Source: a virus (Duplodnaviria > Heunggongvirae > Uroviricota > Caudoviricetes). From it: DNA of 14,881 nucleotides. Each line of letters opens with the position of its first letter. Position 1 is the first letter of the stretch. The stretch lies in IMG/VR virus record IMGVR_UViG_2706794687_000017; one strand, 5' to 3'. The notes beneath the pieces were generated by a model. It had not been told where the DNA came from, ran no database searches, and worked only from the letters and a program-made list of their open reading frames with translations. Below, one piece after another: positions 2,850 to 14,674 of the stretch. The position numbers and the translations under genes are program-made.

Positions 2850-5463
2850 TTGCATATTCCTTAGCCCAGCGGGGCAGTGATAACGTCTTAATAGCTGGCC
2901 ATTCATCGGTATTGAGGCAGTCAGCCAGGGTTCGCAGATTGCGGTGATATTCCAGCTGACCTGCCAGTTTTGCTTCTTCGCCCATCATGAAAATTTCAAC
3001 CGGATAACGTCCGCATTCAATAGTTGTGCTGGCAACCAGAAAAACGAAAGTTGGCTGCACTCCAAACTGTGCTTCATAACCGTCACTGTAGAATGCATCC
3101 TGAACGTGATAGCGGTAGTCGTAATAAGCGGTTTTGAATCGTTGAATATCCGCCGTAGTTTTCACGTCCATGATCCAGTGAAATTCAGGGATAATTTTGT
3201 CCGGACGGCACCGACACAAAATTGCTGTTTCAGGATCTTCCCAGTAAATTGATGATTCAGCGTGTCCGGCGCTTTCAACAAGCCATTGCCCCAGCGGCAA
3301 AGCCATAACGCTCTGATACATGAGTTCAATTTTCCGGCCTTCTTCGGCAGTGATAACCGTTTTTCCTGTGCTTGCGCATTCCCTCAGAAACGCTTTCTCT
3401 TCTTCTTTTCCGGAGTTTGTCCGGCGGTTAAATTCAGGTGCTACGATAAAGCGGTTACTGAATTCTTCCGGCTCAAGTACCCGGCAGTGGAAAGCGGTTC
3501 CTAAATCGAGCGTTTTTGTCTTTGTGGTGTCCACGGGGGCATTTTTACGCCACAAATACAGTGCCGGAGTATCAGCAATGTCATCGAGCTGAGACTTACT
3601 GACACCGGGACCCGCGTGGTAATTCTCATTCGAAATTCCGTAATAAATACCTGGCTCTATGTCTTCTACGATTACGGGATCTGCGACTTCGCCAGTTTCA
3701 TCACTGCAATCGCGATGCGGATCGCTGCCAGCATTCTCATTGTGCNNNNNNNNNNNNNNNNNNNNNNNNNNNNNNNNNNNNNNNNNNNNNNNNNNNNNNN
3801 NNNNNNNNNNNNNNNNNNNNNNNNNNNNNNNNNNNNNNNNNNNNNNNNNNNNNNNNNNNNNNNNNNNNNNNNNNNNNNNNNNNNNNNNNNNNNNNNNNNN
3901 NNNNNNNNNNNNNNNNNNNNNNNNNNNNNNNNNNNNNNNNNNNNNNNNNNNNNNNNNNNNNNNNNNNNNNNNNNNNNNNNNNNNNNNNNNNNNNNNNNNN
4001 NNNNNNNNNNNNNNNNNNNNNCCCTTTACCCATTTCGGATCGTTCGGGTCGCTAATTCCGTCAACAAATTCACCACGTGATGCAGCAAGCAATTTATCGG
4101 CATCGACAGGATTTTTTGATGGAATGTTTTTCCGGGCTTCATGGAGTTCTGCCCGCAGTTCCTGATATTTCGCATCAACAGAATTTACCTGTGACTGAGC
4201 ATCCAGCGGCTGCGTGTCCTGATGATGTTCAGTTGCGTCCGGTTCCATTGTTTCAGCCTCTCCCTGTTCAACTGCCGTTGTTCCAGATGGTTGCGGTTTT
4301 TCTTCATCATCCTGTTTTCCTTCTTCTGTTACTCGCTGCGGCATCGGGGCAGAGGAGCGACCGCAGGCAATATCCACGATTTCCGGATCAGGGTTGGCAT
4401 GATCGGTTTCAGTCAGTACTTTGTTCAGATATTCAGTGACGTGCGCGGGGATGACCTCGATCCCAATTGGTGCTTCTTTTACGGACGCAACCACGATGGC
4501 GCGGGAATAATCCAGCCCGCCAGGCATGGTGATGAATTTGTCGCGGAAAACAGAAAAGGGCGGTTTATTTTCAGCGATAATTTCCTCAATGCGTTTAGCG
4601 TGTGCCGGATGAAGGTTATAGATGTCCAGATCCATTGAACGGGCCAGTACGCCAGTGGCTACGTCCCGCGCCAGTGACGTCAGATCGTGTACGAAACCTT
4701 CGCCGCGATCGGTGAGGTTTCCGCCGCCAGCATTAGCACCGGAAGCCGTGCGAGTGATGTGTGAAACACGATTACCCTTCATCCACTCTTTTGTCAGCAG
4801 TCCTCGATCGGTGTAGTCAGCGTTCAGGTATGCTTCGAAAAAAGCAGTTATCAGTCCCAGGTTTGAATTACCAGGATTAGGGAAAACTTTGTCAGTGTCA
4901 CGAACCAGTTTGTGGAGTTCGCGAATTTCCAGCGGGTCGAGCAGGCTGGTTTTGTGGGAAACAGCCAGGGCAGTAACAGCCGGTAGTTCTTCAGCCCGAG
5001 CAATGTGTAATGCCTGGAGTCCGTCGCGTGAAACGTGCGTTACCGGTTTTTCGCTGCCGTGTTGAGCAAGCCAACGAATGGGCAGTTCCTGGCCAGAAAT
5101 TGGGAGTAGCATATTCTCCTCAATCTCAGTCATGTCTTCGCCGTTGACGTTGGTATTGCCTTGATAGTGAGCGTTGTCTGGTGCTGCTCCCGGTTTTAGT
5201 TCCCATGTCATGGAGTCTTTGCTGAGTTGATAGCGTTCACTCCAGGTAAAATCGATCTCACCTTCAGCGGGCAGGTCATTAACGACAGGAAAATTCGTGG
5301 CAACAGCTTTAAAATAGCTGCTCAGTTTTTTACCTGACTTAACGATCAGGTAGTCCAGAGTGGCACAGGTCGATTCAAAATCGTTGCTTGCCCACAGGAC
5401 GACGTCAGGTTCACCGGATGATTTTTTCGCTTTCCGTAACAGGAAGAGTGGTTTTGTGCTCAT
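2842..5463 (-). CDS. recE: RecE exonuclease VIII, 873 aa; internal bases 3746-4021 are masked
   Basis: ATG at 5463. N-terminus [41 protein letters not shown] and C-terminus ...[13 protein letters not shown] are recognised as RecE. The frame is continuous across the 276-nt mask (a multiple of 3). Confidence 0.93.
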
Positions 5464-7236: not shown

Positions 7237-7534
7237 CTNNNNNNNNNNNNNNNNNNNNNNNNNNNNNNNNNNNNNNNNNNNNNNNNNNNNNNNNNNNNNN
7301 NNNNNNNNNNNNNNNNNNNNNNNNNNNNNNNNNNNNNNNNNNNNNNNNNNNNNNNNNNNNNNNNNNNNNNNNNNNNNNNNNNNNNNNNNNNNNNNNNNNN
7401 NNNNNNNNNNNNNNNNNNNNNNNNNNNNNNNNNNNNNNNNNNNNNNNNNNNNNNNNNNNNNNNNNNNNNNNNNNNNNNNNNNNNNNNNNNNNNNNNNNNN
7501 NNNNNNNNNNNNNNNNNNNNNNNNNNNNNNNNNN

Positions 7535-7783: not shown

Positions 7784-8284
7784 CTATAAGTACATTTTGT
7801 GTGTAAAAAAATGAGATGGGATAAAGTGAAGCACAAACCCGGAGGGGGACGCTANNNNNNNNNNNNNNNNNNNNNNNNNNNNNNNNNNNNNNNNNNNNNN
7901 NNNNNNNNNNNNNNNNNNNNNNNNNNNNNNNNNNNNNNNNNNNNNNNNNNNNNNNNNNNNNNNNNNNNNNNNNNNNNNNNNNNNNNNNNNNNNNNNNNNN
8001 NNNNNNNNNNNNNNNNNNNNNNNNNNNNNNNNNNNNNNNNNNNNNNNNNNNNNNNNNNNNNNNNNNNNNNNNNNNNNNNNNNNNNNNNNNNNNNNNNNNN
8101 NNNNNNNNNNNNNNTCTCGGCGAGGAATTGTTTCGCCATTAAACCATTTGCTAACCGCTTTTGGTGTTAATTTCATTCGACGGGCAATTTCTGCCTGCCT
8201 TCCATGTTGTTCATAACCAGCGTTTTCACAGGCTAGCGCAAGCCTACTGGCGAACTCTTTACGCGCTTTATCTTCATGAACCAT
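7784..8284 (-). CDS. racR: RacR-like prophage repressor (XRE-family HTH); bases 7855-8114 masked, 3' end uncertain
   Basis: N-terminus MVHEDKARKEFASRLALACENAGYEQHGRQAEIARRMKLTPKAVSKWFNGETIP has a helix-turn-helix signature and is divergent from the cro-like ydaS. No SD precedes the ATG at 8284, so the transcript may be leaderless. The end coordinate assumes frame continuity across the mask. Confidence 0.6.
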   Translation of the reverse strand: MVHEDKARKEFASRLALACENAGYEQHGRQAEIARRMKLTPKAVSKWFNGETIPRRXXXXXXXXXXXXXXXXXXXXXXXXXXXXXXXXXXXXXXXXXXXXXXXXXXXXXXXXXXXXXXXXXXXXXXXXXXXXXXXXXXXXXXXXASPSGFVLHFIPSHFFTHKMYL

Positions 8285-11444: not shown

Positions 11445-11459
11445 TTGCCGGAGGCGCTT

Positions 11460-11876
11460 ATGGCAAAAGTTTTTACACAGGAAGAGCGTGAAAAAATTAA
11501 GGAGCAGGTTGTTGAGTTGGTACGCCAGAGTGGGCGCGAGACGTTAAGGCAACTGGAGGCCAAGACAGGTGCGACAAGATATCTGATGAGCATTCTTGCC
11601 AGAGAGTTGGTTGCCAGTGGCGATGTATACAACTCTGGCTATGGGTTATTCCCGTCTGAACAGGCTCGTAAGGATTGGAAAAACGCCCGCAAAAAACTAT
11701 CCAGGGCAAAGGTGAAAAAAACGGTTGTGGTTGATCCTGACCTTATCTGGTCATTACCAGACGGAGAAATACGCCGCTATGACAGGCGTCAGAACATAAT
11801 CTGTCGCGAGTGCCGGAAGAGTGAAGTTATGAAACGTGTACTGGCATTTTATCAAGGAAATCTTCGGTATTTATAG
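11460..11876 (+). CDS. Hypothetical prophage protein, 138 aa, last conventional gene before the AT-rich cargo
   Basis: First ATG at 11460 preceded by GGAGG (11451-11455). The ORF-track start at 11445 is a TTG. Protein MAKVFTQEEREKIKEQVVELVRQSGRETLRQLEAKTGATRYLMSILAREL is not recognised. Confidence 0.72.
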   Translation: MAKVFTQEEREKIKEQVVELVRQSGRETLRQLEAKTGATRYLMSILARELVASGDVYNSGYGLFPSEQARKDWKNARKKLSRAKVKKTVVVDPDLIWSLPDGEIRRYDRRQNIICRECRKSEVMKRVLAFYQGNLRYL

Positions 11877-12014
11877 ACGTTACTAGATCAAAGAGCATTA
11901 GTTCATATGTAAATTGACATTTTTCTGGCACAGGGGAGAGCTAGCGTGGTTGTCCGCTTTGTGCCAATAGCGGACATTGCTGGCTCATGGTATGTTAGTT
12001 TAAGGAGGCAGGTT

Positions 12015-13037
12015 ATGCCCTGTATTTCGCTGTGGTATAATAGTTGCGCAATTGATACAAGGGAGCGTTACATCGTGAAAATTGTTTTCGAGGTTAATGG
12101 AAAGAAAGTTCCACTAAAATCTTTAAAATACATAAGCAAAAAAGATCAACTCGAAGTAATGAAAAACTGGTTCTTTGAAAACTTTGAAGATCCGGCAAAT
12201 GCTTGTCCGTATGAAAGTAGAGAAGGTGGCTATGCTTACATATATGGCGGGCCGTATGATGCGAGCGAAGAACTACAATCCATCTTCGGTCAATATGTTA
12301 AATCTGAGTATATTGAGGAATTAGTAGATGAATTACAAACACAATGTTTTGACTGGTCTGGAAACTCAAATAATATAGATGATTGGTACGATGATGATAT
12401 CTACGACGCTGTAACGTCTTCCGGTAATCCGTATTTAAAATTCATTGATAATATCGATAAAATAAAAAAACTTGCAAAAGATAAAACTGAACAACAGCAA
12501 AAAAACCACTTGCTTAGTTTGCTCTACACGAATGTTATTACAGCTTTGGAAACGCTTTATGTTGAGCTATTCATTAATTCTATAGAGAAAGATGATGTCT
12601 ACATAGCCAATTGTATAGAAAAAGGTAAGACTGAATTTAAAGTAAGCAAAGATATTGCTGCGTTGCCTTTCAAGGGTGAACCCATCGAGAAAATTAGGGG
12701 AGAGCTAATCAGGTCAATCAAGGAACACTTGATCAGTGCAAGCTGGCATAGCACTAAAAAGGTAATCGACCGCTATGAAGCTACATTCGATATAAAAGTA
12801 CAAAAAGACTGTCCGATAGAAGCTATTGAATTGGCAACCCTCAATCGAAATCACTTAGTGCATCGTGGTGGAAAGGATAAAGAAGGGAACCTCGTAGTGA
12901 TTACAGACCAGGATCTTGAAACGCTGATTGAAAATGCATCGAACCTGGCAATTATGCTCTACAACAGTTTAAATGTAGCAACGAATAAAACCACCATTTT
13001 GCAACCAGATGACAAACCGTTCATTCATGAATTTTAA
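12015..13037 (+). CDS. Cargo gene A: uncharacterised AT-rich protein (about 340 aa; 320 aa if started at GTG 12075) with a C-terminal R-x4-H HEPN-like motif
   Basis: Long ORF. ATG at 12015 is preceded by AAGGAGG (12002-12008) at 6-nt spacing. Codon usage is strongly AT-biased, unlike the flanking prophage genes. Motif NRNHLVHRGG is encoded at about 12843-12872. No family recognised. Confidence 0.8.
   Translation: MPCISLWYNSCAIDTRERYIVKIVFEVNGKKVPLKSLKYISKKDQLEVMKNWFFENFEDPANACPYESREGGYAYIYGGPYDASEELQSIFGQYVKSEYIEELVDELQTQCFDWSGNSNNIDDWYDDDIYDAVTSSGNPYLKFIDNIDKIKKLAKDKTEQQQKNHLLSLLYTNVITALETLYVELFINSIEKDDVYIANCIEKGKTEFKVSKDIAALPFKGEPIEKIRGELIRSIKEHLISASWHSTKKVIDRYEATFDIKVQKDCPIEAIELATLNRNHLVHRGGKDKEGNLVVITDQDLETLIENASNLAIMLYNSLNVATNKTTILQPDDKPFIHEF
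12033..12041 (+). promoter_or_regulatory. Extended -10 element TGgTATAAT (possible promoter for the cargo operon if translation starts at GTG 12075)
   Basis: TG at 12033-12034 and TATAAT at 12036-12041, followed by GGGAG (12061-12065) and an in-frame GTG at 12075. The -35 region is weak (TTATGC). Conflicts with the ATG 12015 start, which has a textbook SD. Confidence 0.3.
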
Positions 13038-13052
13038 TAGCGCAGGTCATAC

Positions 13053-14054
13053 ATGGATATTCGCACACGAAAGACAAAATTTTTAGAGTCGTTAGATTCA
13101 ACTGAAGTGATACGCAAAGCAGTAAGTCTCGCTATAGATTGCATTATTGATAATCATAATAGTAATGAAGATACCCCCTTAGTTATTACCAGCTATGATG
13201 ATCTCTGTAGAATCCAGGTGCTAAATTATGTACAGGAGTTTTGCGAAGCTGCATTCCCTGATATGGATGAATATTACTTTAGTCCTAACATACTTCGCAT
13301 CAACGGCAAGACTAGTGAAGAAGCTTGTATTAACTTAATTAAACTCTTAAGAAGTACAAAAGGCATGCTATTCTGGTCCGATGCCCCATCGTGGTTCGCT
13401 AGCCTCCCCGACGGATTATTCCATGTTGTTAACATTGATCAAAAAATCGTTACTCGCGGCCTTAATAAGAAAAACTCTAAGCCGACAATAATCAATAAAG
13501 ATTACAGTGTAGATACACTACTATCAGAGCTATTTTTGAATGGCGCACACATGGAGCAACCCAACGTACACAACGTTTCTGAGGGAAACATGAAGTTCTA
13601 TGATGAATGCCATGCTGGATTAATCAGACCAATACCCGCTCCAATAGGCGCGTCATACGATGAAGAGATCACAATTAATTCTCCAGATTGGCAAAAGCTC
13701 GCGTGTGTAGCTTTACGCCGCTATCAGTCGAAGGAATGTCATGACGGAATGCAATGGGATACAACCGATCATGGTTGGACTGATGTAATCGCGTATCCAT
13801 TCGTCGAAGAAATACAATCAATGGATAATAGTGGTTATCGACAATGTTTAGTTGGGCTGGTCACAATAAACAATTCAAATGCAAATTCTCCGTACCTATC
13901 TACCGTTTGGATACATCCATTTTATCGCAGGAGAGGGTTATTAAGTAAGTTATGGCCAAAATTACAAGAGTTATATGGAAGTAACTTCGAAATTGAGCGA
14001 CCTAATGAAAATATGAAAGCATTTCTGAAAAGTGCGAAACACGCAGATTACTAA
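13053..14054 (+). CDS. Cargo gene B: uncharacterised AT-rich protein, 333 aa, with a C-terminal GNAT-like (acetyltransferase motif A-like) segment
   Basis: ATG at 13053, 15 bp after the gene A stop (operon arrangement), TAA at 14052-14054. C-terminal CLVGLVTINN...VWIHPFYRRRGLLSKLWPKLQELYG resembles GNAT beta4/motif A (compare the VHPEYRGRGIG pattern). The N-terminal 190 aa or so are unrecognised. Confidence 0.85.
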   Translation: MDIRTRKTKFLESLDSTEVIRKAVSLAIDCIIDNHNSNEDTPLVITSYDDLCRIQVLNYVQEFCEAAFPDMDEYYFSPNILRINGKTSEEACINLIKLLRSTKGMLFWSDAPSWFASLPDGLFHVVNIDQKIVTRGLNKKNSKPTIINKDYSVDTLLSELFLNGAHMEQPNVHNVSEGNMKFYDECHAGLIRPIPAPIGASYDEEITINSPDWQKLACVALRRYQSKECHDGMQWDTTDHGWTDVIAYPFVEEIQSMDNSGYRQCLVGLVTINNSNANSPYLSTVWIHPFYRRRGLLSKLWPKLQELYGSNFEIERPNENMKAFLKSAKHADY

Positions 14055-14615
14055 TTTATGAATCAGTCTGTGGAGTTAGGGTTGGTGTGAACAAGTAGGG
14101 TAAGAGCCTCAACGTGATGCTATGCCGACCTGCTCCCTGAGAATTCACACAGAAGGCTGCTAGCAATGTCTGCAGATCGCTCAAAGCGGACTAAAATGTT
14201 GGCTTGTTTCTGACTTAGAGCATTTAAGGAAGTGCTGGTGGTGACTGGTTGTTGTGTTCCATTTCTACAGAATAAAATCACAGAAACTATACCCAATAGT
14301 TGTATTGAATCACTGACGAGACAGCCTCATATTTATCAGGACTGGTGTGCGTCTAATACAGGGGGTTGTCGTGCTGGTTCTCAAATGTGCGCTGGCTATT
14401 GCGGCTGTAATGGCAATTTATTGTCTTGCTGTTGTTCTTATGGAGCGGCTTTCTGATTGATTACATACTGGCTAGAAAAAAGGTGTTACCTTGGTTTATC
14501 TTTGTCCGGCAAGGTGCGCTCATTAATCTTAAGTAAATTTATTGCTCAAGTATTCAGATTACTTCTTATGGTTGAAGTCTCCTGTCAATGTAGAACCAAT
14601 ATATTTACAAAAATG

Positions 14616-14645
14616 AGACCCGTCGGGGATAGCCCTGCCGGGTCT
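14616..14645 (-). terminator. Imperfect GC-rich hairpin followed on the minus strand by a U-run; likely intrinsic terminator for the convergent gene at 14675-14881
   Basis: agacccg (14616-14622) pairs with cgggtct (14639-14645), with an inner ggg/ccc pair. On the minus strand the stem is followed by ATTTTTG (rc of 14607-14613). Confidence 0.45.
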
Positions 14646-14674
14646 GACTGTTAAAGCATTTTTAATATGATCAT

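Follow-up and report, generated by a model that had tools for sequence, protein, structure and literature searches.

A Rac Prophage Carries an AT-Rich Two-Gene Insert

What are the two AT-rich genes that stand behind the replication block of this prophage, and do they act as one system? The window, meaning the whole 14,881-nt stretch of viral DNA that was analyzed (IMG/VR record IMGVR_UViG_2706794687_000017), holds a prophage of the Rac type adjoining ttcA. The genes read in it, whose names were taken from an annotated Escherichia coli chromosome with 100% identity across this region, are intR, xisR, recT, recE, racC, kilR, sieB, immunity genes, ydaT, ydaU/V-like genes, replication genes, and a DUF977 gene. 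The two genes in question, here called A and B, come next after DUF977 on the same strand:

12075..13037, plus strand: gene A (DS-33A), a predicted 320-aa HEPN RNase with a HEPN/RES-NTD1 domain and a RiboL-PSP-type HEPN domain
13038..13052, plus strand: A–B spacer TAG CGC AGG TCA TAC, 15 nt, kept in all paired and A-deleted copies
13053..14054, plus strand: gene B (DS-33B, P289 allele), 333 aa, with an N-terminal orphan domain and a C-terminal GNAT domain

The original prediction, made from the sequence alone, had described an AT-rich pair of same-strand genes inserted after the replication block, separated by 15 nt and followed by noncoding DNA and a convergent terminator, and each of these points holds. 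Gene A has a GC content of 0.361 (GC3 0.346) and gene B one of 0.391 (GC3 0.356), against 0.47–0.53 for the four replication-block genes 5′ of A. The remaining very low-GC troughs in the window profile are four masked N runs and represent a false signal. The region 3′ of B consists of ∼620 nt of unannotated DNA with a hairpin at ∼14617–14646, and because ATTTTTGT comes after this hairpin on the minus strand, the hairpin is what terminates the convergent DUF1971 gene. No Rfam family was found anywhere in the window.

The Operon Is the Anti-Phage System DS-33

A search of full texts and supplements with the accession of A identified the operon as DS-33, an anti-phage system already published in the DefensePredictor study (DeWeirdt et al., Science 2026, PMC13092281). 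The protein encoded by A is identical to DS-33A (WP_014639476.1) at 320 of 320 residues, with the GTG read as Met, and B is identical to DS-33B at 332 of 333 residues, the exception being position 289, where the window has the common allele, P289, and the tested DS-33B has L289 (PMC13092281); gene order and the 15-nt spacer are the same in both. In that study the system has the working name GNAT, is listed among the predicted novel defence genes and counted as defensive, with DefensePredictor log-odds of 9.45 for A and 1.08 for B, and it gives 2–6 logs of protection against T7, T3, Bas67, and Bas26 (PMC13092281). The phenotypes come from Tables S6–S8 of PMC13092281; the values below are log10 protection (Table S7, two replicates), obtained with an operon carrying the L289 allele of B:

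Wild type: T7 3.8/2.6; T3 3.3/2.4; Bas67 4.0/2.0; Bas26 5.0/5.9; T5 0.8 or less
HEPN deletion: T7, T3, Bas67, Bas26, and T5 all ∼0
R258A: T7, T3, Bas67, Bas26, and T5 all 0.8 or less
GNAT deletion: T7 4.8/4.3; T3 3.3/3.3; Bas67 4.0/3.3; Bas26 5.0/4.9

These phenotypes indicate that the HEPN protein is necessary for defence, that it needs its catalytic arginine, and that it is sufficient against T7, T3, Bas67, and Bas26. The dispensability of B against the same four phages applies to the tested L289 allele. PMC13092281 gives phenotypes only for DS-33, without discussion of the system in the main text, and contains no mechanism, trigger, target, abortive phenotype, or evolutionary analysis for it. 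The earlier view of the pair as horizontally acquired, defence-type prophage cargo was thus right, and the plaquing assay proposed for it has in effect been published, while the statement that the pair belongs to no named system is superseded. As a discovery the operon itself has little novelty, having been predicted, cloned, and shown to be defensive in the 2026 paper. It matters nonetheless, being present with both A and B in 209 of 5426 complete E. coli genomes (∼4%), among them UTI89 and the type strain ATCC 11775.

Gene A Encodes a HEPN Protein

Two hallmarks of the HEPN superfamily are present in A: a four-helix up-and-down bundle fold and, where the last core helix begins, an R-x4-6-H motif. 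The motif reads RNHLVH, and its R258 and H263 (320-aa numbering; R278 and H283 in the 340-aa numbering) are invariant in 29 homologues. The R-x4-H motif of the HEPN type noticed from the sequence is therefore confirmed by this conservation and by the loss of protection in R258A (PMC13092281). The metal-independent RNase activity typical of the superfamily is suggested for A by this genetic need for R258 (PMC13092281). Domain profiles recognize the family better than they do the window protein. Specifically, PF18870 (HEPN/RES-NTD1) is matched by 29 of 29 aligned homologues at an E value of 0.01 or better and gives window A 21.8 bits, below the 27.4 cut-off; PF18735 (RiboL-PSP-HEPN) is matched by 10 of the 29 (best E 6.6e-9) and not by window A itself. 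The HEPN/RES-NTD1 domain has been found joined to HEPN, RES, and ABC domains (PMC3710099) and is joined to a PIN_8 nuclease in the protein P0116; judged from these architectures, it is a portable domain. Sequence searches of PADLOC 2.0, NCBIfam, and the PDB with A returned nothing significant, A has no detectable sequence similarity to solved chains, and PHROGs searches with A and B returned unnamed families only.

Gene A Starts at GTG 12075, Behind a Conserved Leader

The original prediction had begun A at ATG 12015, behind a strong ribosome-binding site. The 5′ ends of 13 operon copies from unrelated genomic contexts were aligned, and the alignment delimits a leader with the following features:

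11976..12074, plus strand: conserved noncoding leader (alignment of 13 cassette copies)
11988–11996, plus strand: TGgTATGTT, a second candidate extended −10 in the leader, seen by eye in all copies
12004–12016, plus strand: AGGAGGCAGGTTA motif of the leader, misread as a ribosome-binding site plus ATG
12033–12041, plus strand: candidate extended −10 TGgTATAAT (consensus TGgTA(T/C)AAT) in the leader, seen by eye in all copies
12060–12065, plus strand: Shine-Dalgarno sequence AGGGAG of A, in the leader

Neither ATG 12015 nor its AAGGAGG is conserved as a start among the cassette copies: the codon at that position is ATA in three of them (L098, L101, L102) and TTG in two (L103, L104), and in a further copy (L003) a 1-nt indel disrupts the frame that would run from it. 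GTG 12075 and the AGGGAG/AAGGAGG that precedes it are invariant across the aligned copies, the 320-aa protein that begins there is the RefSeq call WP_014639476.1, and distant A homologues begin at the equivalent residue. Conservation thus refutes the upstream start in favor of GTG 12075, and the supposed strong ribosome-binding site is a piece of the conserved noncoding leader. The original prediction had also named a candidate extended −10. A conserved site of this kind is apparent by eye at 12033–12041, inside what had been read as coding sequence, and we regard it as a candidate promoter; the consensus promoter scan, however, detected none immediately 5′ of A, and its hits did not outnumber those in shuffled sequence. 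A consensus terminator scan likewise did no better than shuffles. Of 116 other cassettes, 14 have a GGGAGCAGGTCA-like motif at the constant offset of +50 to +52, where the background is 3 in 1398.

Gene B Encodes a Two-Domain GNAT Protein

The structure model of B is confident (pLDDT 90) and divides the protein into an orphan domain (residues ∼1–190) and a GNAT acyltransferase fold (∼190–333) with the β4–α3 cofactor loop of that superfamily. The RRRG segment sits in this loop, so the GNAT-like motif read from the sequence is upheld, and B is predicted from the model to act as an acyltransferase. The N-terminal 190 residues match nothing, and a profile of this domain finds 24 proteins among 1.84 billion representatives, all of them with B-like architecture or fragments thereof. 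The family has many invariant polar residues. Searches with B in PADLOC 2.0, NCBIfam, and PDB sequences gave nothing significant. Position 289, the one residue at which the window and the tested allele differ, lies in an H-P-F-Y-R loop between β4 and α3, that is, in the GNAT cofactor loop, and its proline is invariant in the family alignment, in 63 of 63 homologues, and in 84 of 84 loci.

A and B Are Paired Only in a Shallow Clade

Within the paired clade the two genes look like a unit, their spacer and gene order being strictly conserved across genera. This pairing is confined to A of at least 78% identity with B of at least 73% identity. In 78 of 80 species-level loci A homologues have no B within 8 kb, and the two exceptions are nearly identical to A. 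The homologues at 76% (Aeromonas) and 72% (Yersinia) stand alone beside core genes, each closed by an intrinsic terminator of its own, and the Aeromonas gene adjoins sucD. A is also free-standing in over 70 distant lineages. No B homologue with an identity of 68% or below is accompanied by A; such homologues occur in an ICE, where ParE/PaaA2 is adjacent, in a Mu-like prophage, behind polA, and next to a P4-like satellite primase, with AAA_13, RelA_SpoT, Abi_2 (a weak match), and an integrase among their other neighbors, and the genes 3′ of these solitary copies are mutually unrelated. A conserved partner beside distant A or B homologues was looked for and none was found, and an obligate A–B partnership was rejected on this ground. 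Co-occurrence of the pair in other genomes, which the original prediction had put up for testing, is borne out in the shallow clade, where the genes are neighbors, but not in the outgroups, where each is solitary.

Decay within the paired clade is asymmetric. In three copies (L099, L149, L150) an internal deletion of A joins the leader to the last ∼70 nt of A and leaves B intact, and A is truncated in 4 of the 209 E. coli carriers. IS elements interrupt B in two genomes. The paired clade thus showed losses of A beside a retained B, but no clean loss of B beside a retained A.

The best reading of this distribution is that A and B are self-sufficient modules recently joined under one promoter, in agreement with the published genetics of DS-33. 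The mutual need that characterizes type II and type VII toxin–antitoxin pairs is absent here, A and B being solitary in outgroups and the GNAT-deletion construct (of the L289 allele) being viable. An effector-plus-partner or toxin–antitoxin-like arrangement, as first envisaged for the pair, is accordingly unsupported: deletion of the L289 GNAT leaves defence intact or slightly higher.

DS-33 Occupies a Motif-Bounded Slot

Homology among copies of the operon extends beyond the genes and ends sharply on both sides, which defines a cassette with the following boundaries and flanks:

11445..11876, plus strand: left flank, DUF977 (ydaW-like), the last replication-block gene, in 3900 E. coli genomes
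11952..11975, plus strand: 5′ boundary motif GTCCGCTTTGTGCCAATAGCGGAC, a 7-bp inverted repeat around TTGTGCCAAT, where homology of the cassette copies starts
14055..14191, plus strand: conserved 3′ untranslated tail; copies are alignable to its end and then diverge
14178–14191, plus strand: 3′ boundary motif CGCTCAAAGCGGAC, the end of the cassette tail
14192..14472, plus strand: right flank, conserved backbone, which in other prophages lies ∼200 nt 5′ of hokD

The DS-33 cassette is thus 2.2 kb long (11952–14191), its copies being alignable only between the conserved, palindromic 5′ and 3′ motifs. The backbone at 14192–14472 precedes hokD in 1745 genomes, and hokD itself is absent from the window. 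A Cys-rich 74-aa ORF at 14232–14456 lies inside this conserved hokD-upstream backbone and is probably spurious.

The 5′ motif is far more widespread than DS-33. It occurs in at least 120 viral contigs, is followed by 54 downstream sequence clusters, and has A and B next to it in only 8 of 123 instances. The end of a DUF977 gene lies 79–102 nt upstream of it in 67 of 118 instances. A 34-nt consensus of the motif matches 3874 of 5426 E. coli genomes and in K-12 falls inside "ydfV," just 5′ of relBE–hokD in the Qin prophage. The slot after DUF977 is highly variable, and the motif marks it in most E. coli genomes; elsewhere it holds QueH, an α/β hydrolase, a deaminase, a large hypothetical protein, two minus-strand hypothetical genes, small nin-like genes, relBE (in K-12 Qin), or a DUF4209 protein, the last of these being a member of the HEPN superfamily (PMC3710099). 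Some loci have two or three copies of the 5′ motif, and in 10 of 111 other instances a 3′ motif stands 32–34 nt upstream of the next 5′ motif, a spacing that looks like a junction between tandem cassettes. Two explanations of the 5′ motif were tried and found no support: as a conserved RNA or DNA hairpin, its stem is broken without compensation in two diverged copies (L091, L115) and corresponds to no Rfam family, and as coding sequence (R-F-V-P-x-A-D), it has no consistent ORF start. A literature search with the sequence of the motif gave unrelated primers only and no paper on the motif itself.

A broader reading, which we put forward tentatively and hold to be doubtful as a whole, combines these observations with the question of allele 289. 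In this reading DS-33 would be one cassette of an undescribed, motif-delimited cargo-exchange site in lambdoid prophages, starting with GTCCGCT-N10-AGCGGAC (loop TYGTGCCANN), ending with CGCTCAYAGCGGAC, capable of stacking into arrays, and used by dozens of unrelated cargos that include defence genes; separately, the P289 GNAT may tune the HEPN nuclease, an effect that a test with P289L may have missed. The boundary motifs also make it simple to find, by sequence, what a very common prophage hotspot carries, and more defence genes are likely to lie in the slot they mark.

A Model for DS-33 and the Role of B

Taken together, the evidence makes it likely that DS-33 is a 2.2-kb cassette in a slot between DUF977 and the hokD/late-regulator region of Rac, in which A is the whole effector for the tested phages and B is a separately evolved mobile GNAT that was joined to it recently, shares its promoter, and is not needed against T7, T3, Bas67, and Bas26. 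HepS of Gifsy-1 (PMC13043305) and HEPN abortive-infection proteins at large (PMC3710099) suggest, by analogy, that A would be latent in uninfected cells. A phage-derived cue may activate it through its N-terminal HEPN/RES-NTD1 domain, upon which A would cleave RNA at a composite R-x4-H site formed by a HEPN dimer. Such cleavage would keep new phage from being made, and the infected cell would probably be sacrificed in the process, the outcome then being abortive infection.

The main competing explanation, which we consider improbable, is that A and B are a functional pair after all, with B braking or regulating the HEPN nuclease in an antitoxin-like part that has been underestimated. In type VII toxin–antitoxin systems the MNT protein AMPylates the HEPN protein, and by analogy B might acetylate A or the RNA or tRNA substrate of A. 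The GNAT deletion is if anything more protective than the wild type, which would fit some coupling of B to A (differences in logs: T7 +1.0/+1.7; T5 +1.0/+0.5; T3 0/+0.9; Bas67 0/+1.3); these values come from two replicates only, however, and higher protection could also be an expression artefact of the construct. Furthermore, the only genetic test of the GNAT (PMC13092281) used an allele mutated at a residue invariant in all 63 homologues and 84 loci, and because P289L hits such a residue, the deletion was compared with an allele that may be impaired. The conserved 15-nt spacing, the movement of the pair as a unit into many contexts, and the retention of B where A is deleted or truncated, which is the pattern expected if a toxin is lost before its antidote, also speak for a brake. 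Against it, A stands alone with its own terminator in the closest outgroups and alone in the more than 70 distant lineages, B is likewise free-standing in outgroups, the GNAT-deletion construct is viable and functional in MG1655, and the GNAT domain of B is not close to GNAT toxins or to known HEPN partners.

Less probable still is that B, placed behind A in a shared transcript, works independently as a further defence or counter-counter-defence gene with a specificity of its own, directed at phages outside the tested panel or at phage inhibitors of A. Solitary B homologues do lie in mobile-element and defence-island contexts, B is kept, still driven by the candidate cassette promoter, after deletion of A, and its many invariant polar residues fit an active enzyme. 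However, B alone (the HEPN deletion, with the P289L allele) gave no protection against the five retested phages (PMC13092281), its DefensePredictor log-odds are low (1.08 vs. 9.45 for A; PMC13092281), and it has no PADLOC match. The reading of A as the effector and of B as a recently joined module is thus preferred; the comparative data present the two genes as separate modules, and the role of the GNAT is easy to test experimentally.

Relation to Known Systems

Several known systems resemble DS-33 in part. HEPN-MNT (type VII) and GNAT-RHH (TacAT/AtaRT) modules are also two-gene operons on mobile DNA that encode a HEPN RNase or a GNAT enzyme. DS-33, however, has neither an MNT nucleotidyltransferase nor an RHH antitoxin. 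In addition, B, at twice the size of the GNAT toxins, is not structurally close to them, and A tolerates loss of the tested B allele (PMC13092281). Subunit B of PD-T4-2 belongs to the same RiboL-PSP-HEPN subfamily as A (Vassallo et al. 2022, PMC9519451), to which it is matched by HHblits with a probability of 96.1 over 55% of A (PMC13092281). The two systems differ in their partner gene and N-terminal domain; in addition, the PADLOC HMM PD-T4-2_B matched neither A nor any of the 29 family members, and the partner PD-T4-2_A is absent.

A close parallel is HepS of Gifsy-1 in Salmonella, a solo HEPN abortive-infection protein whose default state is inactive and which a phage protein switches on (PMC13043305). 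HepS has fewer than 250 residues, lacks a HEPN/RES-NTD1 domain, and carries its motif near residue 100; it is known to be triggered by the tail-tip protein J and to target tRNAs (PMC13043305), whereas for A a phage-derived trigger and an RNA target are proposed by analogy. In both cases, nevertheless, a single HEPN protein suffices, no inhibitory partner is involved, and the R-x4-H motif is required, and HepS, like A, is encoded in a lambdoid prophage, in the accessory slot that follows the replication genes (PMC13043305).

Boundaries and alternative cargo of the DS-33 slot

The DS-33 cassette is flanked on both sides by conserved palindromic motifs:
11952-11975, 5′ boundary motif, CCGCTTYGTGCCANNAGCGGA
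14178-14191, 3′ boundary motif, CGCTCAYAGCGGAC

In viral contigs, these same motifs also head at least 54 unrelated cargo sequences and at some loci occur in arrays; further occurrences among the compared loci are in L098 (at 271, 1535, and 3837), L202, L212, and L171-L290. A 34-nt consensus of the motif has matches, all without annotation, in 3874 of 5426 Escherichia coli genomes.

Other strains carry different cargo in the same prophage slot (loci L156-L162 and L291-L293, and the Qin prophage of K-12), including QueH, an alpha/beta hydrolase, a DUF4209 protein of the HEPN superfamily, a “deaminase” together with a hypothetical protein, a large protein (≥777 aa) that is likewise hypothetical, and, in K-12 Qin, relBE. 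With the DUF977 gene and hokD as its limits, the slot behaves as a defence/accessory hotspot. On its right lies a flank that carries no annotation:
14192-14472, right flank, 281 nt

This flank is conserved, at ~90% identity, among 1745 E. coli genomes, and its counterpart in other prophages lies ~200 nt upstream of hokD; the window lacks hokD, and the flank is followed by a DUF1971 gene on the opposite strand. The Cys-rich 74-aa ORF within the flank (14232-14456) is probably spurious.

Elsewhere in the window, four runs of N mask the sequence:
1440-1740, N run
3746-4021, N run
7239-7534, N run
7855-8114, N run

These runs break up recE and the sieB/immunity-gene region, and because of them the troughs in the GC profile (0.17-0.24) are artificial.

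Gene B without gene A, and its allele at residue 289

Natural internal deletions of gene A, upstream of gene B, were found in three compared loci (L099, L149, and L150), where the junction joins the cassette leader to approximately the last 70 nt of A and leaves B intact; a truncated A beside an intact B is also present in four complete E. coli genomes. Two marine gammaproteobacteria of different genera (L082 and L165) have a solitary B homologue inserted immediately 3′ of polA. In one, B adjoins a protein with a weak match to Abi_2 (HEPN-type); in the other, the gene after B encodes a membrane protein of 273 aa. The site downstream of polA in these two loci may be a second hotspot.

One residue of gene B bears on the published work:
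13917-13919 (+), codon 289 of gene B

Residue 289 is located within the GNAT cofactor loop, and the proline at this position is invariant across all homologues and loci examined. The sole experimentally tested DS-33B allele, WP_000354965.1, carries P289L. Thus, the published result that the GNAT is dispensable (PMC13092281), obtained with the P289L allele, may not hold for the common allele.
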